Assembly (NCBI GenBank): GCA_036845085.1
Contig: DAIUEN010000011.1
Span: forward strand, 1 to 17,716
From: Candidatus Nanopusillus sp.
GTDB lineage: Archaea > Nanobdellota > Nanobdellia > Nanobdellales > Nanobdellaceae
Direction: 5' to 3'
Length of the DNA: 17,716 nucleotides
Below the pieces are notes generated by a model, which was given only the letters and a program-made list of their open reading frames with translations, had not been told where the DNA came from and did not search any database. Position numbers and translations under genes: made by a program. The stretch's first letter is position 1. Every line of letters begins with the position of its first letter. Shown piece by piece: positions 20 to 17,699 of the stretch.

Positions 20-91
20 TGGACCCGCCGGGATTCGAACCCGGGACCTTCGGCTTGCAAGGCCGACGTCCTACCACTAGACTACGGGCCC
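20..91 (-). tRNA. tRNA-Ala: tRNA-Ala, anticodon UGC
   Basis: The minus strand reads GGGCCCG-TA-GTCT-AGTGGTA-GGAC-G-TCGGC-CTTGCAA-GCCGA-AGGTC-CCGGG-TTCGAAT-CCCGG-CGGGTCC-A. This is a complete 72-nt cloverleaf with anticodon TGC (59..57), the G3:U70 alanine identity pair and T-loop TTCGAAT. There is no intron and no encoded CCA. It is a strongly GC-rich island in AT-rich DNA. Confidence 0.92.
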
Positions 92-3066: not shown

Positions 3067-5232
3067 CTAATCTATACTTCTTCCAGAGAATGTTTGTTTA
3101 GGTCCTTTATACTCGGGAAGATTAGAAAATAGGGAATATGTAAATACACTATAGGGGACAATAGGTTGTTGATTAATATTTTGATAGACAAATTGATATG
3201 GTCCCGATATAGTATAAAAGTTAGGATAACCTGTATTAACACCCAGAGATCCATAATATAAATTTCTTAAACTGTATGGGGAGAATAAATATTCGTATAA
3301 ACCTTCTAATTGACTTAAGCCAGTAGAATAGAAACCACCTGGTTCATGAACAACAATTGTCTCTTTATTTTCTAAAATATCTTTCAACTTATTTAGCTCT
3401 TCCATAACAACATCATCCCAACCCATACCCAATGGCAAATGAGTATCAGATCCCCATTGTGTCTCATGAACATGAATGTGTTTTAAGTATTTTTTATAAT
3501 TATTGAAATTATCTAGCCATTTTAGTATATCTTCTTTAGTATATCCAAATTTTTCATACATTTTTGCGTGTCCAACGTCCCAATTTATTCCTACATGTTT
3601 ATCTACAAATTCTTCTATACTACCATATTCTTTTTTTATCTTATTAATTATATTAAAAAATTCCTTTCTTTTTTCTAATTCTTCTAAAGCTTCTTTAATT
3701 CCTTTCTTTACTTCTTCCATATAGCCAATCAATAATTCAGGTCTAGAAGCTATAGTACCTGCATATGATTGCTCTATTATTATTGTTGGAAAAACTTTGT
3801 CTAAATTCTGTAATATTTGGGGCTCCCTCGATGCTATTCTATTTAGCATATCTATAATAGCATTTTTTACTATTTCTCTTGCATTTTCTCTAGCTAAAAC
3901 ATCTGCAGGATACAAAACAGGTATATTTAAATTTTTAGATTTTTCACCTATAGCTACAATATTTCTGGCTAAATTATCTATTAACCCGGGTCCTTCTTGT
4001 ATATTTTCTGTATTTATACCAAATAAATTTCCAATACTTTTTGATAAATCCTTTATTTTATTATTATCAATATTACCTTCTCTTATCTCTTTAATTTCTT
4101 TTTCTATCTTCTCTAACAGGTCTTTTATACTCTTATCTACACTACGATCAAACATTTTTCTTTCGTAATTATAAATTTCTTCAATTTTATTAGATATTTC
4201 TTTTTTTATCTTATCATCCAGAATATCGCTATTTTTATAATGTTCTAATTTTTCTTTATATTTATCTAAGTAATATTTTATAACATTTTTTAATTTTTCA
4301 TATTCTTCTAAAGAATTTTTTACTTTTTCTATGTATGAGCTGAGATAAAATAAGTGTTCTTTTAAATTTTCTATATTATTTTCTCGTAAGTCTTCTTGTA
4401 TTTGTAATAATATATTTGCAACTTCATGTTTTATATATCCTCTGTTGAATGGTCTTACTATTTCAGATGCTTCTTTAGTATATGCTTCTACAATATTATT
4501 CCAGATATTTTTATTTGTAAGATCTAATTCTTTAATTATATTACCATCTTTTGATACAATTCCTACATGAGAATATAAAACTTCTCCAACCCCTTCTTTC
4601 CTACCCATTGCTTTTTCTGGTTCTAATAATATAGATGCATAAGAATGAACAATCTTTGCAAATAACCAAGAAGGTAATTTATCAACAGAGTCTATATTTT
4701 TATATTCTTCTGCACTTATATATCCTTTTAACAACAATTCTTTTTTTATTTCTTCTAATTTTTTTGGATCTTCTCTTATGTGTTTTTTTACCATTTCTTC
4801 AAATCCTTTATCATATACAGCAGATTCCATATCTCCAGCATGCATATTTACATGCAAAGAATTTCCATAAATATTACCCATAATAGATGCTGTTTCTAAT
4901 ACAGCAGAAACCTTATATGCCATATCCCTCTTAACACTATCTGTAAATCTTTCACCAATAATACTACTCAATTGAAAATCATTTTCTGGTGCATGTAAAG
5001 ATAAATTCATTTCATTTATCCTTGCAAGCCTTGCAGCTTCTTCCCATATAAATTTAGGTATTCTTGCCCACCCTTTATCACCTTCAAAAGTAAATGTTTG
5101 TACCTCTACCCCCTTATAACCTAATAAAGATTTATTTTGTACCTCTAAATGTTGTAAAGGATTGGCAGGATTTGTACTTGTAGAAATTCCTTTATTAAGT
5201 AATTTCCTTGTTATGTCATCATTATTACTCAT
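3067..5232 (-). CDS. Xylose isomerase-like / endonuclease IV-like TIM-barrel protein interrupted by a ~350-aa helical insert, with a Tyr-rich C-terminal tail
   Basis: The long ORF is certainly coding. The track start at 5253 is TTG, and the first ATG is at 5232 (MSNNDD). Using the track's 728-aa numbering, the ordered motifs are SLHAPE (~85), HVNMHAGD (~134), IIIEQSYAG (~491), WDVGHA (~558), HIHVHET (~592), DTHLPLGMG (~603) and VVHEPGG (~634). They reproduce the strand-end metal-ligand pattern of the AP-endonuclease-2/xylose-isomerase TIM-barrel superfamily from memory. Residues ~141-488 are K/E/I/N-rich helical repeats. The family call is by motif recall, not by alignment. Confidence 0.5.
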   Translation of the reverse strand: MSNNDDITRKLLNKGISTSTNPANPLQHLEVQNKSLLGYKGVEVQTFTFEGDKGWARIPKFIWEEAARLARINEMNLSLHAPENDFQLSSIIGERFTDSVKRDMAYKVSAVLETASIMGNIYGNSLHVNMHAGDMESAVYDKGFEEMVKKHIREDPKKLEEIKKELLLKGYISAEEYKNIDSVDKLPSWLFAKIVHSYASILLEPEKAMGRKEGVGEVLYSHVGIVSKDGNIIKELDLTNKNIWNNIVEAYTKEASEIVRPFNRGYIKHEVANILLQIQEDLRENNIENLKEHLFYLSSYIEKVKNSLEEYEKLKNVIKYYLDKYKEKLEHYKNSDILDDKIKKEISNKIEEIYNYERKMFDRSVDKSIKDLLEKIEKEIKEIREGNIDNNKIKDLSKSIGNLFGINTENIQEGPGLIDNLARNIVAIGEKSKNLNIPVLYPADVLARENAREIVKNAIIDMLNRIASREPQILQNLDKVFPTIIIEQSYAGTIASRPELLIGYMEEVKKGIKEALEELEKRKEFFNIINKIKKEYGSIEEFVDKHVGINWDVGHAKMYEKFGYTKEDILKWLDNFNNYKKYLKHIHVHETQWGSDTHLPLGMGWDDVVMEELNKLKDILENKETIVVHEPGGFYSTGLSQLEGLYEYLFSPYSLRNLYYGSLGVNTGYPNFYTISGPYQFVYQNINQQPIVPYSVFTYSLFSNLPEYKGPKQTFSGRSID

Positions 5233-5255
5233 AAATAGATTTATATCTTTCAAAA

Positions 5256-6896
5256 TTAATAAGATAGTAGTCCAAAGGTTTTTTTCATAGAATTATATAT
5301 GGTCCATATTTTTCTAGCAGAAGACATCAAAAAATCAGACTTCTCTTTTTCCGATTGTCTTTCTATTTCTTTTCTTTGTAAATTCTTAGATATTAATTCT
5401 AAGTTATATCCAAAAGTTGTTATAAAAGACATTATTAATTCTAATGGATTTGGAAATACGGATACCTTCTTACTTTCTTCTTTCTTTTCTTCTTCTCTTT
5501 TTTTCATTTCCTCATTTTTTTCAGAAGGAAAATATTTTTCTATCCAATATAAAGATCCTAAAGCTTCAGATATCCTATTATCTTTCATTAATTCTTGTAA
5601 TAATTCTTTAGTCCATTTTATATCATATATTGTATTTATTTCATCTGGCTTTTTATTGCTCTTAGAAGCTACTAACTCAAGTAATTTTTTATCATTTTTT
5701 ATTATATCAAAAATATATACGTCTAATAAGAGCTCTTTTATGTTAGATATATATTCATCCGTCAAACCTGTTGCTAATGTAAAATCTTTCGATAATTTAT
5801 CTAACTTCAAAGAATTATATTCGGACTTTTCCAAAATGTATCCATATATATTAATTTCTAACCTTCCCGAGAATAAGTAATATTTACCATAGTCTTGGGA
5901 CTGAGGAATTGCTCTTCCTTTAATATTGATTTCATATACTGGTATATATGTCTTTTCTATAGGGTCATTTTTAGTTTTGTCCCATTCTTTTATTTTTTTT
6001 TCAGCATCTGTTAATATTAAAGATAAATCTATAACAGTTACATTAAATATATTGACAATATCTGGGGTTTCTTCTCCAGTAATAATAGATTTTTTTGCTA
6101 TTTTAAAATAAGGTTTTATTATTTCAGTATAGTATACTAAAGAATTCAATTCATGTTTTAGATATCCTTTCAATATGTTTATTCTATGTATAACTTCATT
6201 ATAGTGGTATTCCAACCAAGAATAAAAATTAGATAACCTAGAAGATATAACTCCTCTTACTACCTCGTTTAACACATTTTTAGTTTCTTCCGAATCTATT
6301 TGCAAACTTTTATCATTCTTTATATAATTATATAGAGCTTCTCCAATTATTCCCTTGTTTTTCAATTTTTCTATCTCAGACAAAATTTCATATCTAAAAA
6401 ATCCAGCATATGCTGATGGAAAAGTTCTAGAAATATTCCTTAAAGGAGCTGAAGGGTTTATGGTTGGATCTACATAGTCTATCCATCTCTGCTTTAAATA
6501 TTTATAAGCAGCATATGCTTTTTTTTCATCATTTGACTTTAAATCTAAATAACTCTTATATACGGTATATAATAATTGATATTCATTGATAATTGAGATA
6601 ATACTTTTAGTTAATACATTTATTAATTCTCCGATATTACGAAGATTTGATATTAAATTAGCAAAAGTTCTATATGATAAATCTCCAAAAAGTCCAGATG
6701 CAAAAGAGGCATTGTATGTATCTGATATTTTGGATATCTTTAGTTTTAAACTATCTCTTGCAAAATCTATAAGCCAATAATATAGCTTATCAAAAGATAT
6801 ACCTTGGTGATCTAATAAAAAATAAATTTCTAAAATTTTGTGTTTCTTATCTTCAACACTTTCTTTTCTTAGCTCTTCTAAAGTAATCTCTGCCAT
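5256..6896 (-). CDS. Hypothetical 546-aa mostly alpha-helical protein, partner of the TIM-barrel gene
   Basis: The ORF is open to 7112, but I place the start at the ATG at 6896 (MAEITLEELRKE). The upstream 72 codons are low-complexity and would overlap the divergent plus-strand gene. I see no TM segment or signal peptide, and I recognise no family. It has a charged EEMKKREEEKKEESKK linker and an amphipathic C-terminus (KIWTIYNSMKKTFGLLSY). Its stop lies 2 nt (TTG start) or 23 nt (ATG start) before the next gene. Confidence 0.75.
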   Translation of the reverse strand: MAEITLEELRKESVEDKKHKILEIYFLLDHQGISFDKLYYWLIDFARDSLKLKISKISDTYNASFASGLFGDLSYRTFANLISNLRNIGELINVLTKSIISIINEYQLLYTVYKSYLDLKSNDEKKAYAAYKYLKQRWIDYVDPTINPSAPLRNISRTFPSAYAGFFRYEILSEIEKLKNKGIIGEALYNYIKNDKSLQIDSEETKNVLNEVVRGVISSRLSNFYSWLEYHYNEVIHRINILKGYLKHELNSLVYYTEIIKPYFKIAKKSIITGEETPDIVNIFNVTVIDLSLILTDAEKKIKEWDKTKNDPIEKTYIPVYEINIKGRAIPQSQDYGKYYLFSGRLEINIYGYILEKSEYNSLKLDKLSKDFTLATGLTDEYISNIKELLLDVYIFDIIKNDKKLLELVASKSNKKPDEINTIYDIKWTKELLQELMKDNRISEALGSLYWIEKYFPSEKNEEMKKREEEKKEESKKVSVFPNPLELIMSFITTFGYNLELISKNLQRKEIERQSEKEKSDFLMSSARKIWTIYNSMKKTFGLLSY

Positions 6897-6954
6897 AACT
6901 ATATATATAAAAATATTTCCAAAGTTATAAATTTTGAAGTTTCTTACATATTTT

Positions 6955-7494
6955 ATGAAACTGAACTTAATAATAATACCATCAAAAAAATTTTCTGAAG
7001 ATGATCTATATAACTTTATGGATATTTTAGATGGTAAAACATATGTAGCTAATATTAAAAGGAATGTATCTATAGGAAAATATAAATCTTTAGTATTCCC
7101 AGATTTTGACATAAATGAAATATTTATGATGCGAGATCACTATTTTGATAGACTAATATTTTTAGCAGATGAAGGATTCAAAGAATTTATAAATATAAAG
7201 ATTGCTGCAATATTTACAAGATATTTAAATTTATATAAAACAGTAATACTTTCCACATTAGCTCCTATAGCTTTTATTAAGATGAATCTATTACATGGAA
7301 AAAAAATAGTATTTAATTATGAAGAATTTCCAGAATATTTAAAAATAGTAGAAAAATATAGAGCAGAATTTTTATCTGGATATAGTTATTTTGTTGATAA
7401 AAACTTAATAACTGTAAAAGGAAGGGAAACTATATATGAATTAGGGGAAGATCTATTAGAAATAGAAAAAGAATTAAAAAAACTTATGCTATAA
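6955..7494 (+). CDS. Hypothetical protein (179 aa from the first ATG)
   Basis: The track start at 6934 is TTG, and the first ATG is at 6955 (MKLNLIII). The composition is protein-like, and an ORF this long is unlikely by chance in ~75% A+T DNA, where stop codons are frequent. I recognise no family. Its 3' end overlaps the RNR 3' end by 11 nt. Confidence 0.6.
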   Translation: MKLNLIIIPSKKFSEDDLYNFMDILDGKTYVANIKRNVSIGKYKSLVFPDFDINEIFMMRDHYFDRLIFLADEGFKEFINIKIAAIFTRYLNLYKTVILSTLAPIAFIKMNLLHGKKIVFNYEEFPEYLKIVEKYRAEFLSGYSYFVDKNLITVKGRETIYELGEDLLEIEKELKKLML

Positions 7495-10222
7495 TACATT
7501 CAGACCATCCACAATCCATACAAGTTATACATCCACCTTCATGTTTTAATTTATTGCTTCCACATATAGGACATAAAGTTTTGAGATTATCATTTTTATT
7601 TATACTATAACTTGACTGTAGATTAAGCTTAACTTTTCCTACTTGACTTTCTTCTATTTTTTCTTCATATATTAGTTCTTTATATATAGCAGAAAGTTCT
7701 ATTCCTAATGACTTTAATATTTCTAAAGTTTTATTATTTATTTTTCCACTTAAAACCATTTTTAAATACTCCTTTGCTCTGTTCTTACTAGCTTCAGCAG
7801 GAGCATAATATACTTGAGCAGATTTAGAACCTTCCCTATAAATAGTAATTCCTTTACATCCAGATTTGTATGCAAATATATATGCCTTATAGACATCCTC
7901 TGGCTGTACCCATGATGGCATATTTATTGTTTTTGATATAGAAGTCGTTATCCACAATTGTGCTACTGCTTGTGCTCTTACATGATCCCACCATGGGATA
8001 TCCAAAGCTGTTAGGAATACTTTTTTCATATCTTCAGGTATTTCATCCAATCCCATCAAGCTACCACCATTATTTGAAATTTTCTTCAAAAGTTCTTCAT
8101 TATATAAACCTCTTTCTCTCAATTGTCTTTCAAATTCTATGTCTACATAATAATAAGTACCAGCAGTTACTCTTTTTTCATATACAAGAGAATATTGTGG
8201 CTCTATTCCGGATGATACATCGACTAACATAGATATTGAACCTGTTGGAGCAATAGATGTTACTTCTACATTTCTTATACCGTATTTCTTTATTTCTTCA
8301 ACAAGGTAATCCCAATCTAAAGTCCATAAATCTCTATGGTAATATCCTTCTAAAGGAATCTCTCCTTCTGGGTATGATGTTTCATAATATTTTTCAAAAA
8401 CTCCTCTTTCTTTTGCTCTATTAACTGATTCTAGCATAGAATAATAAGTTAAATATTCTGTAACTTTCATAATAAACTTAAATCCTTCTTCAGATGAATA
8501 TGGAATCTTTAATGCGTACATAGCATCTGCAAGACCCATGTATCCTAATCCTATTCTCCTAACAGATTTAGATGCTTTTTCAATTTCTTTTACAGGATAT
8601 TTATTAACATCTATTACATTATCTAAGAATCTGTATGCCCATATTATTGTTTCTTTATATTCTTCCCAGTCAAAATAAACATCACCATTCTTAAACTTTA
8701 TCATAGAGTATAAGTTTATTGATCCTAAATTACATGATTCGTATGGATATAAAGGCTGCTCTCCACATGGATTTGTTGCCTTTATTGGTCCCCTATATTT
8801 GTACATGACATTTCTTCTATTTATATTATCCATAAATAAACATCCTGGATCTGCAGATTTCCAAGCAACAAATGCTATATCATTTAATATGCTTTTTGGG
8901 TCTACATAATTTACTATTGCTTCTTTTGGCACTTTATTGATATCATAATTTAAATCTCCAGGAAATGGAGCATTATATTTACTTAATATTCTTGGATTTA
9001 TTAATGGATATGGTTTATTATCATTATAATACTCCCAAAAGTCAGGGGTAAACATAACAGATATATTAAAATTCGTCAATGTTCCTTCTTGTTCTTTAGC
9101 ATGAATAAATTTCAATATATCTGGATGCCATATTTCTAATATACCCATATTAGCTCCTCTTCTTTTGCCACCCTGTTTTATTACATCTGTTAATGTATCT
9201 ATTATTTTCATAAATGAAACAGGACCGGAAGCTACACCACCAGTAGAAGCAACGACGTCACCTTCTGGTCTTAATTTAGAATAGTTTATACCAACTCCCC
9301 CGCCAGACTTAAATATAAGTGCTGCTTCTTTGGCAGATTCCATTATACTTTCCATATCATCTTTTATATCGATGACAAAACATGCAGATAATTGACCTAA
9401 TCTAGCTCCAGCATTGAATAATGTTGGAGAATTTGGCATGAATTTTTTCTGAGCCATTAAATTAAAGTACTTCAAATAATTTTCGTAATATTTGTCAAAC
9501 TCTCCTTTTTTTATCATATCTAAAAGCTGAGTCCATGTCACCTTCATATGACCCTTTCTGTTTAATTCATCATATAAATATTTCATCCTTTCTAGATGAT
9601 ATCTATTCCATTTAACTTTATATTCCCCATTCTCATATTTTAACCCTATTTTATACTCTAATTCTTCAGGATTAAATTCTTCTTCTGGTTTCACAAACTG
9701 TTTCCCATCTTTATCATATACTCTTGGATCATAAAGTATATCAGGTATAACAACTAATGCTGCAACTCTTTCAAACATTTGTTTAGGTCCTTCTATTAAA
9801 TTTTTATTTTCATCTCTTAGTAAATATCTGTTTACCATCAACTTTATAGCATTCAATGAAAACTTCTTTGCTATATCTTCTTCGTAAAAAGGTCCTAATA
9901 ATTCCATTTTTTCTTTTCTTATTCTTTCTTTTTCTTTTCTATATGTTATATAAGCTTTTGCTACTTCATATAAGTCAAATTTGACTAAAGAATATTCTAT
10001 TATATCTTGAATCTGCTCTACATGTGGTATATTTTCTTCTCCAAACTTTTCATTCAAAATATTAACAATAAACTTTAATATTTCGCTAAGCTTATTAGGA
10101 TCGTATTGTCCTACAGCCTTCATAGCCCTTTCAATCGCGTAAAAGATCCTATATAAATCAAAATCGACAACCCTCCCGTCTCTTTTTATAACTTTTTTAA
10201 CTTTTATAGAAAGGTCCATCAT
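7484..10222 (-). CDS. nrdJ: Class II (adenosylcobalamin-dependent) ribonucleotide reductase with N-terminal ATP-cone and C-terminal Cys4 zinc finger
   Basis: ATG start. The ATP-cone is [24 protein letters not shown]. The class II active-site block is [22 protein letters not shown]. Other matching segments are SPTLFNAG and [15 protein letters not shown]. The C-terminus is CPICGS..(9)..[12 protein letters not shown]. At 912 aa there is no intein-sized insertion. Confidence 0.9.
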
Positions 10223-14005: not shown

Positions 14006-15781
14006 CTATGTTAATATTTCTTCATATCCAATAATAACAGAAGGTTCGGGATATGTATATTTTCTAACAATGATATTATCTATCCACCCAGATGCTTCAG
14101 AAGGAAATATAACAACTCTACCAGCAGAAGTTATTGAATAATCTGTTCTAGATGCTGCTAAAACCATATTTCTCCAATATTCTAACCTATTATCCGATAT
14201 TCTAAACTCTAAAGTATATCGTGTATTTGTTGCAGCAGCAAAGTTTGTTTCTGCTAAAACTGTATCTCCACCATTTACTCTTTTACCTAATTCAGATTCA
14301 CGTCTATCATTTGATAGAGCAATGTAATAGTTGTTAGATATATCTATAAATCTTAAGTGTGCAGAAATACCTGAATTACCATCACTAAATGATGTAAATA
14401 AAACATTAAATCTTAAAGCAACATTCGTCATATTTGGTAGAAGTGTTGTTTTGGGAGAAATATATGAATAATAGCCGGCCGGACAACTAAAAGTTAATCT
14501 CCCATTTGTTGCATCATGTGTAAATGTACATCCACCCATATTACTATACGGTATAGGATGCCATCCAGGGTTGTGTACAATATCATAGTTAGATAAAGTA
14601 TTTGTTGAGAAATCATCATACCAATCAAATACATTATGTGGATTGCTTTCACTAGTAGCATTAGGATTGCCATAATACATGTACACAGTAGCATTACCGT
14701 TAGCTGAAATATACGGTACTTTTATCCATATTATTGTATTAGAAGTATTGCATCCACTTTCTATCCAGTATGGTATTTTATATTCTTTATAGTCTGAGGT
14801 ATTTAAATAAGTGAATCTAACATCACCACAATCTGGTTTCATTTTTCCTTGAGATATTGGGGTTTCTGTATCTACAGTTATATTAATTTGATAATCTATA
14901 AGTGTATTTGTATTTAGTGTATTGTTTACAATTATTTTTCTTAGGTATACTCCCATTACAGATGCAAGAGTTATATTAATAGATTCAGAAGATGATCCAA
15001 AAGTAGATTCAAATGTAGCAGTATAATTTCCTACAGAAGCATTACTATTAGTTATTACAAATGTAACTGAACAAGAATCAGAGTCGGAAACATTACAAGT
15101 CTTATATGGAGAATCGCATAAAAATCCCTCTGGTAAATAACATAAGACCATGACGGTTCCCGAAGTATTACAAGATAAGAAAGTAGTAATGGTAACGGAT
15201 TGGGATTGTCCTTGAACTAAATATATCAATGATTTATCCGAAATAATTGAATAGACATAAGCTGAAGTTGGATTACATCCAGATGGCGGATTATAATATC
15301 TGTCGGAATCGTTTTCTGATGAAGTATATGGTATGTCCTTAATATTAATTTTTGTTAAATATACAAGAGTACGTAAATTATTAGATGTTTCATATACATA
15401 AATACTAATCTGGTTAAAATAGTTACCAAACTGAAAATAACTATAATTGGCCTCTACTTTTAGAAGAGAATTATTTGGATATAGTATATAACCGTAAGGA
15501 TTTATTGGCGTTATTTTTGCATCTTGTTTATTAATTAAAACATTTATATACCTATAATCTATTGGCTCTAAAGGTTTTAGATATAGAATTATCTTAGATT
15601 CGTCATAAGTATAAGATAATAATTCAAATTTAGGATAAAAAGAGTCAGAAATAACATTTGATATAGAATTACCAGTTTGAATAGATCGAAAAATGTCTGA
15701 AGAATATAGATAAGTAAGTAAAGATAAAAAACCTACAGAGAGCACAAAAAATATCATCTCTGGAACATGAGAAGCTTTCAT
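14006..15781 (-). CDS. Prepilin-like (class III signal or signal-anchor) surface protein with Cys-rich Ig-like region, DUF2341 domain and LamG/concanavalin-like lectin domain
   Basis: The N-terminus is MKA-SHVPE-MIFFVLSVGFLSLLTYLY. Residues ~280-385 (RKIIVNNT...DYQINITVD...CGDVRFTY...IPYWIESG...IIWIKVPYISANGNATVYMYYGNPNATS...VFDWYDDF) match the DUF2341 consensus as I recall it. Residues ~385-585, ending GWIDNIIVRKY, look like LamG. I count about 15 N-x-S/T sequons and 10 Cys, six of them within residues ~168-240. Confidence 0.7.
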   Translation of the reverse strand: MKASHVPEMIFFVLSVGFLSLLTYLYSSDIFRSIQTGNSISNVISDSFYPKFELLSYTYDESKIILYLKPLEPIDYRYINVLINKQDAKITPINPYGYILYPNNSLLKVEANYSYFQFGNYFNQISIYVYETSNNLRTLVYLTKINIKDIPYTSSENDSDRYYNPPSGCNPTSAYVYSIISDKSLIYLVQGQSQSVTITTFLSCNTSGTVMVLCYLPEGFLCDSPYKTCNVSDSDSCSVTFVITNSNASVGNYTATFESTFGSSSESINITLASVMGVYLRKIIVNNTLNTNTLIDYQINITVDTETPISQGKMKPDCGDVRFTYLNTSDYKEYKIPYWIESGCNTSNTIIWIKVPYISANGNATVYMYYGNPNATSESNPHNVFDWYDDFSTNTLSNYDIVHNPGWHPIPYSNMGGCTFTHDATNGRLTFSCPAGYYSYISPKTTLLPNMTNVALRFNVLFTSFSDGNSGISAHLRFIDISNNYYIALSNDRRESELGKRVNGGDTVLAETNFAAATNTRYTLEFRISDNRLEYWRNMVLAASRTDYSITSAGRVVIFPSEASGWIDNIIVRKYTYPEPSVIIGYEEILT

Positions 15782-15823
15782 ATTAGTATACTATATATCT
15801 GATAACTTATAAAGTATCACTTA

Positions 15824-16270
15824 TCAACTTATGTATATTAGCGTTAAAAACTTAGTTCCACTACAAGAGATTAATTGTACAAAATTCCAAGAATCTTTTC
15901 TTATACTACTATTTTCAAAATATATTATAGCTTCTTCTCCTGGTAATAATAAATCTACAGGATACAATTTGCTTATGTTATAATAAAAGTTTGTTAAAAT
16001 TCCATTAACATATAACTTATAGCAATTTAAATCTTCTGGTTTGTTTCCTTTATTTTGTATTATTATATAGGGATTTTCATAATTCGACAAATTATTTTTG
16101 AATATTATTAATTCTCTGGACTTTTCGTAGTATCTCTCAGAAATAGACAATCCTATAGTATATAGGTTGTTATAACTGCTTTCGATGATATATTTTATTG
16201 TAAAAATACCGAACAAAAATATAGAGAAAACGACAATTGAAGAAAAAATTGAGGATAGATCAGCTTTCAT
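15824..16270 (-). CDS. Small pilin-like / FlaF-FlaG-like protein (148 aa from second ATG)
   Basis: I prefer the ATG at 16270 (MKADLSSIFSSIVVFSIFLFGIFTI) because it forms an ATGA overlap with the upstream stop (16267..16270). The alternative ATG is at 16282. A single N-terminal hydrophobic helix is followed by a beta-rich domain with the IIIQNKGNKPEDL..YKLYVNG pattern typical of archaeal pilin/FlaF/FlaG folds. It has 3 sequons. Confidence 0.55.
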   Translation of the reverse strand: MKADLSSIFSSIVVFSIFLFGIFTIKYIIESSYNNLYTIGLSISERYYEKSRELIIFKNNLSNYENPYIIIQNKGNKPEDLNCYKLYVNGILTNFYYNISKLYPVDLLLPGEEAIIYFENSSIRKDSWNFVQLISCSGTKFLTLIYIS

Positions 16271-16743
16271 TGTACTAAGCATATACTAGAACTTACATTT
16301 ACAAATATCAATTTTTGATCATCTACTCCATATTCACTGACAACCTTTATATAATAATAACCATTAGAATTCCAACTAGTATTTATTGATATTATACAAT
16401 TTGGTGCCCATATATTAATTTCATTAGGACATTGAACTAAATTTATAGTGATATTTTCTTTTAGATATCCATTAACAAATAATACAGTATTTGACTGATT
16501 TAATAGAGTATTACCATAATTTTTAACATACAAAATCAAATTTCTAGATGAATTATCATATGCACAAGAATCTATCTGTATTATAGTGTTTAACTTATTT
16601 GATATTAGCTCTTGCCTAGATATTGCCGCATTGTTGATATTATTCAAACTATTATAAGATGATGACACAAACAAATATGTTAAAATAGCTGCGGAAATAA
16701 ACAATATTATATTAACTATTATCGTAGCAAACTGTCCTCTCAT
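16267..16743 (-). CDS. Small pilin-like / FlaF-FlaG-like protein (158 aa)
   Basis: The N-terminus is MRG-QFATIIVNIILFISAAILTYLFV: a basic residue, Gly, then a ~22-residue hydrophobic helix, which is class III signal-like. It is followed by LILYVKNYGNTLLNQSNTVLFVNGYL. It has 5 sequons and 4 Cys. Confidence 0.55.
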   Translation of the reverse strand: MRGQFATIIVNIILFISAAILTYLFVSSSYNSLNNINNAAISRQELISNKLNTIIQIDSCAYDNSSRNLILYVKNYGNTLLNQSNTVLFVNGYLKENITINLVQCPNEINIWAPNCIISINTSWNSNGYYYIKVVSEYGVDDQKLIFVNVSSSICLVQ

Positions 16744-16775: not shown

Positions 16776-17591
16776 TTATTCTTCTAGTTCATATCCCTCG
16801 ATGCCTTTGTCTATTACAATTTTTCTCCATTCTAAAAGCTTTTTTTGTCTCATTATTTCATATTCTACAACTTTATCAATTATTTTTAGATTTTGGACTC
16901 CTTTTATTTCTACTTTTTCGCCTTCCGGTATAGAAATGTTTATATCTTGTCTAATTGTTCCCAAACCTCTTTTTACTTTACCAGTTAATCTTAATACTAG
17001 TCCTATATATTCTGCTACTTCTTTAACCTCTTTCAGACTAGTTAAATCTGGTCCAGTAGCTATTTCTATTAGTGGTATTCCCAATCTATCTAATCTATAT
17101 TTAACATAATTTTCTCCTTCCTCAATTTTTCTAGCAGCATCTTCCTCTATACATAAAGTTTGTATTCTTATCTCTTTACCTTTATAATTTATTTTTCCAT
17201 CCAAAGCTAATAACAAAGTCCTTTGAAAACCAGATGTATTTGAACCGTCTACCACTATTTTCCTCATTATCTGAAGAATTTCTGGTATATACATATTAAA
17301 ATACTCTGCTAATAAAATTCCGAATTTTAGCGCTTCTTCATTAATTAAATGCGGCGGTTCTTCATCTAGTTCTACCAAACAAGAATAATCATTTGAATAC
17401 TGATAAAAAAATATCTTATCTTTTTGTGTTTCATATTCTGCAGCTACATCTTTTTTACCAATTTCACTTTGTACTACTCTCAATTTTCTCATAATTTCAT
17501 AATCGTAATGATCTTCTAAGTCGGTTTTACAAGAACAAAATAATTTTTCTTTAGTATTTATTTGTTGATGTATTTCTAAACCAGCTCTCAT
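16776..17591 (-). CDS. gatE: Glu-tRNA(Gln) amidotransferase subunit E, N-terminal (cradle/catalytic) fragment only; split gene
   Basis: MRAGLEIHQQINTKEKLFCSCKT, VVDGSNTSGFQRT, LCIEEDAARK, GIPLIEIATGPD and GTIRQDINISI..G.KVEIKGVQNL are GatE-specific blocks. The ORF stops after 271 aa, whereas GatE is normally about 600+ aa. Downstream are 32 nt and then an unrelated pilin-like gene. Confidence 0.8.
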   Translation of the reverse strand: MRAGLEIHQQINTKEKLFCSCKTDLEDHYDYEIMRKLRVVQSEIGKKDVAAEYETQKDKIFFYQYSNDYSCLVELDEEPPHLINEEALKFGILLAEYFNMYIPEILQIMRKIVVDGSNTSGFQRTLLLALDGKINYKGKEIRIQTLCIEEDAARKIEEGENYVKYRLDRLGIPLIEIATGPDLTSLKEVKEVAEYIGLVLRLTGKVKRGLGTIRQDINISIPEGEKVEIKGVQNLKIIDKVVEYEIMRQKKLLEWRKIVIDKGIEGYELEE

Positions 17592-17625
17592 TATAAAAAT
17601 ATTTTAGTTAAGAAATAAAAATTAT
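17592..17625. promoter_or_regulatory. 34-nt divergent spacer with interleaved TATA-like elements for gatE-N and tRNA-Ala(CGC)
   Basis: TTATAAAAATATTTTA (from 17591) lies at about -35..-20 of tRNA nt 1. On the other strand ATAATTTTTATTT (17625..17613) lies at -34..-22 of the gatE ATG. Calling TATA boxes in AT-rich DNA is weak evidence. Confidence 0.3.
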
Positions 17626-17697
17626 GGGCCCGTAGTCTAGTGGTAGGACGTCGGCCTCGCTAGCCGAAGGTCCCGGGTTCGAATCCCGGCGGGTCCA
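17626..17697 (+). tRNA. tRNA-Ala: tRNA-Ala, anticodon CGC (U at position 37)
   Basis: The sequence is GGGCCCG-TA-GTCT-AGTGGTA-GGAC-G-TCGGC-CTCGCTA-GCCGA-AGGTC-CCGGG-TTCGAAT-CCCGG-CGGGTCC-A. The body is identical to the other copy, including G3:U70. The anticodon is CGC (17658..17660). Nucleotide 37 (17661) is T instead of a purine. There is no intron and no encoded CCA. Confidence 0.85.
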
Positions 17698-17699
17698 TG

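Follow-up and report, generated by a model that had tools for sequence, protein, structure and literature searches.

A nanoarchaeal protein family with a predicted xylose-isomerase-like/endonuclease IV-type barrel split by a long, largely helical insertion

We describe a gene on the reverse strand of a 17,716-nucleotide stretch of DNA from Candidatus Nanopusillus sp. (assembly GCA_036845085.1, contig DAIUEN010000011.1; the whole of this stretch is referred to as the window), a G+C-poor (about 26%), Nanopusillaceae-like contig. Its product, here called the split barrel, is a triosephosphate isomerase (TIM) barrel protein whose two halves are separated by a long insertion. The open reading frame (ORF) runs uninterrupted over 3067..5253 (minus strand) and holds 728 codons when counted from a TTG at 5253; the ATG at 5232 is the likelier start, because homologues begin near that position. 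Residues are numbered here from the TTG (residue 1), which makes the ATG residue 8, and the numbering of the protein that begins there (P0001) is 7 lower. The parts of the gene, and the gene directly upstream of it (c2), are listed below with the secondary structure predicted by AlphaFold2 and the predicted local distance difference test score (pLDDT) of the model.

3067..5232, minus strand: split TIM-barrel coding sequence, 721 residues from the ATG at 5232, with its stop codon at 3067-3069.
4831..5190, minus strand: N-terminal half-barrel (residues 22-141), with strands beta1 (24-26), beta2 (48-52), beta3 (83-87; SLHAPE, containing His87) and beta4 (134-138; HVNMH, containing His138) and helices alpha1-alpha3; pLDDT mostly above 90.
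4540..4830, minus strand: insert part 1 (residues 142-238), predicted to fold as a small alpha/beta subdomain of three helices (149-160, 163-175, 181-186) and two strands (201-206, 230-233).
3940..4539, minus strand: insert part 2 (residues 239-438), rich in K, E, I and N, with seven predicted helices of 16-47 residues each (239-269, 271-290, 294-340, 347-368, 374-392, 397-412 and 415-438); pLDDT 67-84.
3283..3915, minus strand: C-terminal half-barrel (residues 447-657), with matches to PF01261 and 3WQO, comprising alpha4 (450-476), beta5 (490-494; Glu494), beta6 (554-559; Asp559, then His562), beta7 (590-595; His594), a loop carrying Asp603-x-His605, beta8 (633-636; Glu637) and helix alpha8; pLDDT above 90.
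3070..3282, minus strand: C-terminal tail (residues 658-728), predicted to be disordered (pLDDT below 50) and enriched in Y, S, G, F, P and Q.
5256..6896, minus strand: c2, the upstream gene, 546 residues from the ATG at 6896, ending 23 nucleotides before the ATG of the barrel gene.

A first-pass annotation, made from the sequence alone, had read this protein as a TIM-barrel hydrolase or isomerase fold interrupted by a helical insertion at residues 141-488, and its account of the sequence is accurate. These residues correspond exactly to 3790..4833, and the seven motifs that it quoted are all found where it placed them, namely SLHAPE (85-90) and HVNMHAGD (134-141) ahead of the insertion, and IIIEQSYAG (491-499), WDVGHA (558-563), HIHVHET (592-598), DTHLPLGMG (603-611) and VVHEPGG (634-640) behind it. 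The two helical stretches that it quoted lie at 297-341 and 374-393, in the predicted helices 294-340 and 374-392, and the composition of residues 141-488 (K 13%, E 12%, I 12%, N 9%) is as skewed as it had described.

Profile comparisons and structure modelling together show the two flanks as parts of one predicted barrel of the xylose-isomerase-like/endonuclease IV type, as the first pass had supposed. Residues 516-616 match Pfam PF01261 (AP_endonuc_2, xylose isomerase-like TIM barrel) with 38.9 bits against a gathering score of 31.1 (expectation value, E, 1e-9). The N-terminal 140 residues alone have no match in Pfam or NCBIfam, and consequently another test was needed that both flanks belong together. 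When the insert is excised from family members, PF01261 is matched by 25 of the 26 scanned (best E 3.7e-18), and two such relatives match it in a single stretch covering profile positions 9-229 of 249 (E 3.7e-18 and 1e-10). Joining the halves for a profile search, a check proposed in the first pass, thus gives one continuous match at the level of the family but, for the window protein's own joined sequence (E 1.7e-10), still only the C-terminal part of the profile.

The AlphaFold2 model, for which an alignment of 118 full-length members (A1) served as input, has a mean pLDDT of 81.9 and a predicted template modelling score (pTM) of 0.81, with the barrel above a pLDDT of 90, and its secondary structure comprises eight barrel strands, four ahead of the insert and four behind it. 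Since the helix at 450-476, before beta5, is alpha4 of the barrel, the model puts the insertion into the loop that connects beta4 with alpha4, on the catalytic face (the C-terminal one), where it halves the barrel into two (beta-alpha)4 units. The limits first proposed for the insert require adjustment: the split is real, but the non-barrel part is about residues 139-446 (roughly 300 residues), and residues 447-488, which form a short strand, alpha4 and the loop into beta5 with pLDDT above 90, are part of the barrel. A weak match to the NCBIfam model of the UV-damage endonuclease UvsE (residues 407-475, 3829..4035, minus strand; profile positions 72-143 of 308, E 0.04-0.07) spans the end of the insert and alpha4; it is too weak for use, and is consistent with alpha4 belonging to the barrel. 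Structural searches with the whole model in Foldseek give a best E of only 0.015, because the insert breaks the alignment, and probabilities of about 0.7-1.0 for matches within the superfamily. The named proteins among the top 31 are xylose isomerase, D-tagatose 3-epimerase, UlaE and endonuclease IV (1qum), with one exception (a beta-galactosidase at rank 28), and the apurinic/apyrimidinic (AP) endonuclease of African swine fever virus stands at rank 50.

The first pass had treated the protein as a lone oddity, a view overturned by homology searches, in which the split emerges as a conserved feature of a family spread across the phylum. HMMER, run exhaustively over 1.84 billion representative proteins (E <= 1e-3), yielded 195 representative relatives, nearly all of 590-710 residues and with two matched stretches, at about residues 10-160 and about 500-640 of the query. 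The full protein recovered nothing but itself when homologues were sought through a word index, which the K/E-rich insert had probably swamped. The spacing between the histidine of beta4 and the glutamate of beta5 is 218-356 residues in all 118 members of the alignment (median 270), the window protein being the longest (356), compared with 36 between His109 and Glu145 of Escherichia coli endonuclease IV (Nfo). Shorter relatives that we examined are N-terminally truncated fragments that keep part of the helical region and the tail, with the exception of two complete members of 526-527 residues, the shortest found, in which the same spacing is 173 and 176. No close relative free of the insert occurs among the 150 best matches.

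Counted from the first 600 pattern-matched stretches of a scan with a single genome for each species, relatives are present in at least 460 species genomes, and the taxonomy of the best 80 loci comprises Nanopusillus, Nanobsidianus stetteri, Nanopusillaceae, Woesearchaeota, Pacearchaeota and bins labelled only 'archaeon'. The split barrel, as traced by sequence, defines a family that is spread across the Nanoarchaeota in the broad sense. One contig of 1 kb with the label Aquificaceae carries a partial copy, probably through an error in binning, and searches of viral contigs returned no relatives of the split barrel. The names given to relatives by their sources are 'TIM barrel protein', 'hypothetical protein' and 'sugar phosphate isomerase/epimerase'. 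No meaningful match to the defence systems of PADLOC was obtained for the barrel protein or c2, and literature searches on the architecture, on the protein MJ1311 (see below) and on DNA repair in the DPANN archaea (Diapherotrites, Parvarchaeota, Aenigmarchaeota, Nanoarchaeota and Nanohaloarchaeota) found no description of the split-barrel design. The split barrel is thus a new form of a known fold, widespread rather than unique, and without an entry in Pfam, NCBIfam, the PDB or the literature searched.

The insert itself consists of two predicted parts of differing character. The first, the alpha/beta subdomain, contains low-confidence stretches at 212-215 and 219-228 (pLDDT below 50) and varies between 34 and 106 residues in length across the family. 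In the second, the 47-residue helix 294-340 has a hydrophobic periodicity of 3.5 residues (z = 6.3 against shuffles), with hydrophobic residues at 13 of 14 a/d positions, while the remaining insert helices are amphipathic and have no preference for a period of 3.5 over 3.6. The heptad-like character that the first pass had seen as dominating the insert therefore holds for helix 294-340, but not for the alpha/beta subdomain of residues 142-238 or for the other helices. Judged by the predicted lengths of its helices, the chain may run in four passes, each of about 45-50 residues, as an up-down-up-down stalk that would return it to its starting point. Within the insert the family has the consensus 'VNxxTG...E...P...L...N...W', and Asn247 (96%) and Trp251 (96%), at the beginning of the second part, and Pro445 (94%) are kept family-wide, so that, judged by conservation, the insert is more than filler. 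Its net charge is slightly negative (family median -2; window protein -4) and does not suggest DNA binding.

Searched alone, the insert matches no Pfam or NCBIfam family above noise and no intein or transposase, and in the profile search of the PDB this region of the protein was matched by nothing other than designed helical bundles and the coiled coils of ROP, apolipoprotein and nucleoporin (E >= 0.0016). The first-pass annotation had known of no such insertion in the superfamily, and this agrees with the absence of a known domain in Pfam, NCBIfam and the PDB and of a description in the literature that we searched. Matches of the insert to Rad50 (20.8 bits against a cut-off of 1087), to the GatE tail and to Ppl were rejected as compositional, because such matches vary between relatives: they were not repeated in 10 relatives, whose inserts instead match arcadin-4, ASRP, RecN and others at random. 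The GatE-tail match had drawn attention because the gatE of the window is without its tail. Homology of the insert or the tail to c2 was likewise rejected, with hhalign probabilities below 1%.

Behind the barrel, the C-terminal tail is predicted to be disordered yet is well conserved, with Pro697 (99%), Phe709 (94%), Pro713 (97%) and Gly717 (98%) among the best-conserved residues outside the active site, and it has the family consensus 'YGxGFSxLPxELGGQxxGxxSRFSGxPxx'. As conserved disordered peptides usually bind something, the tail is probably a docking peptide.

The barrel also carries a putative metal site. Endonuclease IV (Nfo, PDB 1QUM; an AP endonuclease and 3'-repair diesterase) binds a trinuclear zinc cluster through nine ligands, the positions of which we checked in the E. 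coli K-12 sequence, and these match residues of the split barrel in identity, in order and in the strands that carry them.

Nfo His69 (ILPH): His87 (SLHAP).
Nfo His109 (NFHPG): His138 (NMHAG).
Nfo Glu145 (VIEN): Glu494 (IIEQ; family consensus IEN).
Nfo Asp179/His182 (CIDTCH): Asp559/His562 (WDVGH).
Nfo His216 (MHLND): His594 (HVHET; family consensus HLTDN).
Nfo Asp229/His231 (VDRHH): Asp603/His605 (SDTHL).
Nfo Glu261 (LILE): Glu637 (VVHE).

Alignment of the 118 members shows these nine candidate equivalents of the trinuclear metal ligands to be conserved across the family. His87, His138, Glu494, Asp559, His594 and Glu637 occur in 118 of 118 members and His562 in 117. Residue 603 is Asp in 97 and His in 17, and residue 605 is His in 96 and Glu in 20. 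The change from DxH to HxE, found in 17-20 of the 118 members (window columns 3439..3447; e.g. 'FGMEHTELPMG'), looks like a coordinated ligand swap, as it keeps two metal-binding side chains. Overall identity among the members is only about 20-25%, and ligand invariance at this level of divergence is a pattern typical of a working active site. The spacing of the ligands in the C-terminal half is also close to that of Nfo: Asp to His 3 residues in both, His to His 32 against 34, D-x-H in both, and His to Glu 32 against 30. An hhalign comparison of the insert-excised profile with the single Nfo sequence aligns His216, Asp229, His231 and Glu261 (E 0.058, 46 columns); a global comparison gave no usable alignment, and the local match of the C-terminal ligands alone was usable. 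The idea of a metal-dependent hydrolase is compatible with the conservation of all nine positions.

The closest solved relative of the split barrel is MJ1311 of Methanocaldococcus jannaschii (PDB 3WQO, 'D-tagatose 3-epimerase-like protein', also labelled 'uncharacterized protein'), a predicted endonuclease IV homologue (Kiyonari et al., PMC2770678). It is the sole significant structure in our profile searches of the PDB, with E-values of 5e-14 and 1e-12 when full and insert-excised alignments were used; beyond it these searches returned only designed helical bundles or leucine-rich repeat noise. The match is carried by the C-terminal half (E 5e-14 for the whole sequence, 1e-11 for the domain), while the N-terminal half is aligned weakly, at HAP and H-x-G (domain E 42-62). 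Motifs held in common are HAP, vHpG, DIGH, HVHAHDN, DEHL and the final Glu. MJ1311 is a plain barrel of 293 residues, whereas the split barrel carries about 300 more in the same beta4-alpha4 loop and, unlike MJ1311, has a conserved tail of 70 residues and a conserved partner gene. MJ1311 is reported to keep the nine zinc ligands of endonuclease IV without a groove for DNA binding, and the loop that follows its HPG strand is reported to reach over the metal site of the partner subunit; this is the very loop that is expanded in the split barrel. Nfo resembles the split barrel in fold (Foldseek probability 0.99, target TM-score 0.37), and is likewise a compact barrel (about 285 residues), with loops for DNA binding and residues that flip out the AP site, compared with the 721 residues, 300-residue insert and 70-residue tail of the split barrel.

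The split barrel is also linked to a conserved neighbour. Across the Nanoarchaeota, c2 lies upstream of the barrel gene on the same strand in 55 of the 63 loci with enough flanking DNA. The product of c2 has no Pfam domain and no sequence match in the PDB, and its family comprises at least 1998 protein clusters, with the source-given names in the top 120 all being 'hypothetical protein'; relatives include Nanobdella aerobiophila MJ1_0680 and YN1_2290. The AlphaFold2 model of c2 (pLDDT 80.8, pTM 0.63) has predicted helices of 44 and 65 residues and a sheet of strands of 10-23 residues, and searching Foldseek with it returned nothing credible (best PDB E 0.08, probability 0.12; best BFVD E 0.025). 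The family has the motifs 'YDSxSExLEPIYFWILDF' and 'YDIYKKAHGM'. A mechanical ORF call for c2 (618 residues from 7112) is probably overextended at the N-terminus, and the ATG at 6896 is immediately preceded by a TA-rich stretch. A 186-residue ORF divergent from c2 (6934..7494, plus strand) overlaps the overextended call and has no Pfam match; its position is kept in the Nanopusillus, Nanobsidianus and Nanobdella loci (178-186 residues). In L074 (3215-3568) and 21 other loci from Woesearchaeota and Pacearchaeota, a protein of about 117 residues with a 'MGLFNKKK' start and a coiled-coil end is encoded divergently upstream of c2.

Other elements of the neighbourhood differ between lineages. Between c2 and the barrel gene, loci of Woesearchaeota and Pacearchaeota usually encode a small protein that is K/E-rich and about 200 residues long. 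A nucleotidyltransferase-HEPN fusion gene (about 280 residues) follows the barrel gene in 51 of 65 loci overall. This fusion, in which the nucleotidyltransferase (PF01909) is joined to a HEPN-like part, occurs in most Woesearchaeota and Pacearchaeota and is found for example at L008 7933-8736 and L014 7309-8145, and in about 50 other loci; in L023 it reaches 743 residues, with extra coiled-coil regions. In Nanopusillaceae, including the window, SecY takes its place after the barrel gene, and in Nanobdella separate HEPN and nucleotidyltransferase genes lie 3 kb downstream (L084 14975-15675). The remaining neighbours are housekeeping genes (ribosomal proteins, aminoacyl-tRNA synthetases, phosphoenolpyruvate synthase), and the gene order of the window matches that of Nanobsidianus, Nanopusillus and the cultured Nanobdella aerobiophila MJ1.

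Several further features of the window were recorded. A ribonucleotide reductase of 912 residues with an ATP-cone (7484..10222, minus strand) ends in a short Cys-rich, zinc-ribbon-like segment (CPICGS...) with faint Pfam hints only. A surface-structure cluster (14006..16743, minus strand) encodes a protein of 591 residues with an N-terminal hydrophobic segment and DUF2341, an ORF of 152 residues, and an ORF of 158 residues that resembles archaeal flagellin or pilin (PF01917, just below the cut-off). A GatE-like ORF of 271 residues (16776..17591, minus strand) contains the GatB/GatE catalytic domain only (PF02934, E 7e-54), without the usual C-terminal tail domain, and may be a split or truncated gatE, comparable with the split genes already recorded in Nanoarchaeota; the gene downstream of it is pilin-like. 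Two tRNA-Ala genes, with anticodons TGC and CGC, lie at the ends of the window (20..91, minus strand, and 17625..17698, plus strand).

Taken as a whole, the reading that we favour, with moderate confidence, is that of a split barrel of endonuclease IV type which would act as a trinuclear-metal phosphoesterase, equipped with a helical insert and with c2 as its partner; to the three-metal phosphoesterase assignment itself we give about an even chance. What the analyses establish is the fold, where it is split, the conservation of the family and of its ligands, and the linkage to c2; its chemistry, its substrate, the role of its insert and a physical interaction with c2 are inferred. In this reading the protein is a cytoplasmic member of the xylose-isomerase-like/endonuclease IV superfamily, whose two half-barrels reassemble into one barrel that keeps all nine three-metal ligands. 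Its activity may be that of a phosphodiesterase or phosphomonoesterase, possibly trimming nucleic-acid ends in the manner of endonuclease IV. The insert, growing from the active-site face, most likely serves as a substrate-selecting lid or arm, or else provides a surface on which subunits oligomerise or partners dock, and the split barrel probably works together with the product of the co-oriented upstream c2.

A more specific and speculative proposal, which we regard as rather improbable, is that a Nanoarchaeota-specific machine for nucleic-acid end processing or repair is made up of c2 and the split barrel, joined in most lineages by the small helical protein and in most by the nucleotidyltransferase-HEPN protein. 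In such a machine the helical arm and the C-terminal peptide might serve to dock one or more partners and to present the substrate, with the barrel healing 3'-phosphate or damaged ends and the nucleotidyltransferase rebuilding them.

Several observations weigh against the phosphoesterase reading. The first five ligand equivalences derive from motif order and the AlphaFold2 strand assignment, and the last four from a weak alignment. No curated model of Nfo or UvdE is matched significantly by the window protein, with no Nfo model at E <= 1, and the same is true of 10 relatives. The best NCBIfam matches of the C-terminal half are fructoselysine 3-epimerase (E 2e-8) and the phosphodiesterase CbiR, both far below their cut-offs. 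The charge of barrel and insert is neutral to acidic, which argues weakly against a DNA substrate, and we know of no evident counterpart in the split barrel of the DNA-inserting residues of Nfo (Arg37, Tyr72 and Leu73). The closest solved relative, MJ1311, is itself of no known function, and the sequence and structure searches with c2 yielded no functional clue. Additionally, the geometry of the insert, whether lid or stalk, is read only from predicted secondary structure and pTM.

The alternative that survives best, though we still think it unlikely, is that the protein is a sugar or ketose isomerase or epimerase, with a single metal on a Glu-Asp-His-Glu site and an insert that is merely an oligomerisation domain. 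Sugar isomerases and epimerases bind one or two metals at a Glu-Asp-His-Glu site, and some of them, such as xylose isomerase and L-rhamnose isomerase, possess extra helical segments for oligomerisation. These enzymes (xylose isomerase, D-tagatose 3-epimerase, UlaE, FrlC, hydroxypyruvate isomerase), together with CbiR, share PF01261 with the split barrel and offer the best Foldseek and NCBIfam likeness to its beta5-beta8 half. The annotation of some relatives as 'sugar phosphate isomerase/epimerase', the position of xylose isomerase and D-tagatose 3-epimerase at the top of the Foldseek results, and the C-half matches to fructoselysine 3-epimerase and hydroxypyruvate isomerase all speak for such an identity. 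However, the NCBIfam scores do not exceed 34 bits where the equivalog cut-offs are 305-353 (FrlC 34 against 305; Hyi 20 against 353), and His87, His138, His562 and Asp603/His605 are invariant or exchanged only for other metal-binding residues. Among these, His87, His138 and Asp603/His605 correspond to ligands of endonuclease IV that are not known from the Glu-Asp-His-Glu set of epimerases, while Asp-x-x-His (Asp559/His562) is found in epimerases also. To our knowledge these sugar enzymes lack both the histidines of beta3 and beta4 and the loop with D-x-H, and we know of none in which 170-350 residues have been inserted between beta4 and alpha4. Moreover, the gene has been retained throughout a phylum of symbionts with reduced metabolism, and its neighbours are genes for translation and secretion. 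The split barrel is thus probably not a sugar isomerase.

A second alternative is that the TIM-barrel shell has been retained as a catalytically inactive scaffold. The long helical module and the conserved disordered tail both suggest protein-protein interactions, no substrate is known, and there is a precedent in PF1383 of Pyrococcus furiosus, an endonuclease IV-like homologue with no AP-endonuclease or DNA-binding activity (PMC2770678). However, seven of the nine putative ligands are invariant or nearly so in the 118 sequences and the other two vary only to metal-binding residues, and we consequently judge an inactive scaffold to be quite improbable.

Less probable again, and in our view very unlikely, is the likeness to SMC/Rad50 that the first pass had drawn, under which a long antiparallel coiled-coil arm would connect two catalytic half-heads and tether or bridge DNA or some other structure. 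The resemblance is that of a catalytic globular domain built from two halves distant in sequence, with partly heptad-periodic helices between them; helix 294-340 has the appropriate periodicity, the barrel is divided into two equal halves, and weak profile matches to Rad50, ASRP and arcadin-4 occur, although these differ between relatives and fall far below cut-off, as described above. SMC and Rad50 are ATP-binding cassette (ABC) ATPases with helices of hundreds of residues, whereas the model of the split barrel contains seven helices of at most 47 residues, turning every 16-47, and an alpha/beta subdomain, rather than the long antiparallel coiled coil that had been envisaged. The insert leaves and re-enters the barrel through a single loop on the catalytic face, there is no ATPase head, hinge or zinc hook (CxxC), the halves are separated by a mere 175 residues or so in the shortest members, and the insert's net charge is slightly negative, leaving the analogy as a loose likeness. 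Finally, an artefact or secondary insertion (a misassembly, a frameshift fusion, an intein or a mobile element in an ordinary barrel gene), for which the slightly lower G+C of the insert (0.244-0.246 against 0.28-0.29 in the flanks, a consequence of K, E, I and N codons) might speak, is effectively refuted by family-wide conservation, given the identical protein in independent assemblies, the insert in every full-length member and in at least 460 species genomes, the conserved Asn247, Trp251 and Pro445 within the insert, and the lack of any intein or transposase match.

The family offers a natural case of a TIM barrel in which 170-350 extra residues are accommodated precisely at the junction of the two (beta-alpha)4 halves, and this bears on the hypothesis of a half-barrel origin for the fold, and on the engineering of insertion domains into barrels. 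Its companion c2 represents a family of at least 1998 clusters with no detectable relative in sequence or structure. The Nanoarchaeota are ultra-small, host-dependent archaea with stripped-down genomes, and the retention of this gene pair in hundreds of their species, and beside SecY and ribosomal protein genes in Nanopusillaceae, indicates that it likely has a central role. Neither protein of the pair has a described function, and the nine-residue metal site of the barrel would provide a testable starting point, particularly as cultured carriers of the same pair exist in Nanobdella aerobiophila MJ1 and the YN1 isolate.

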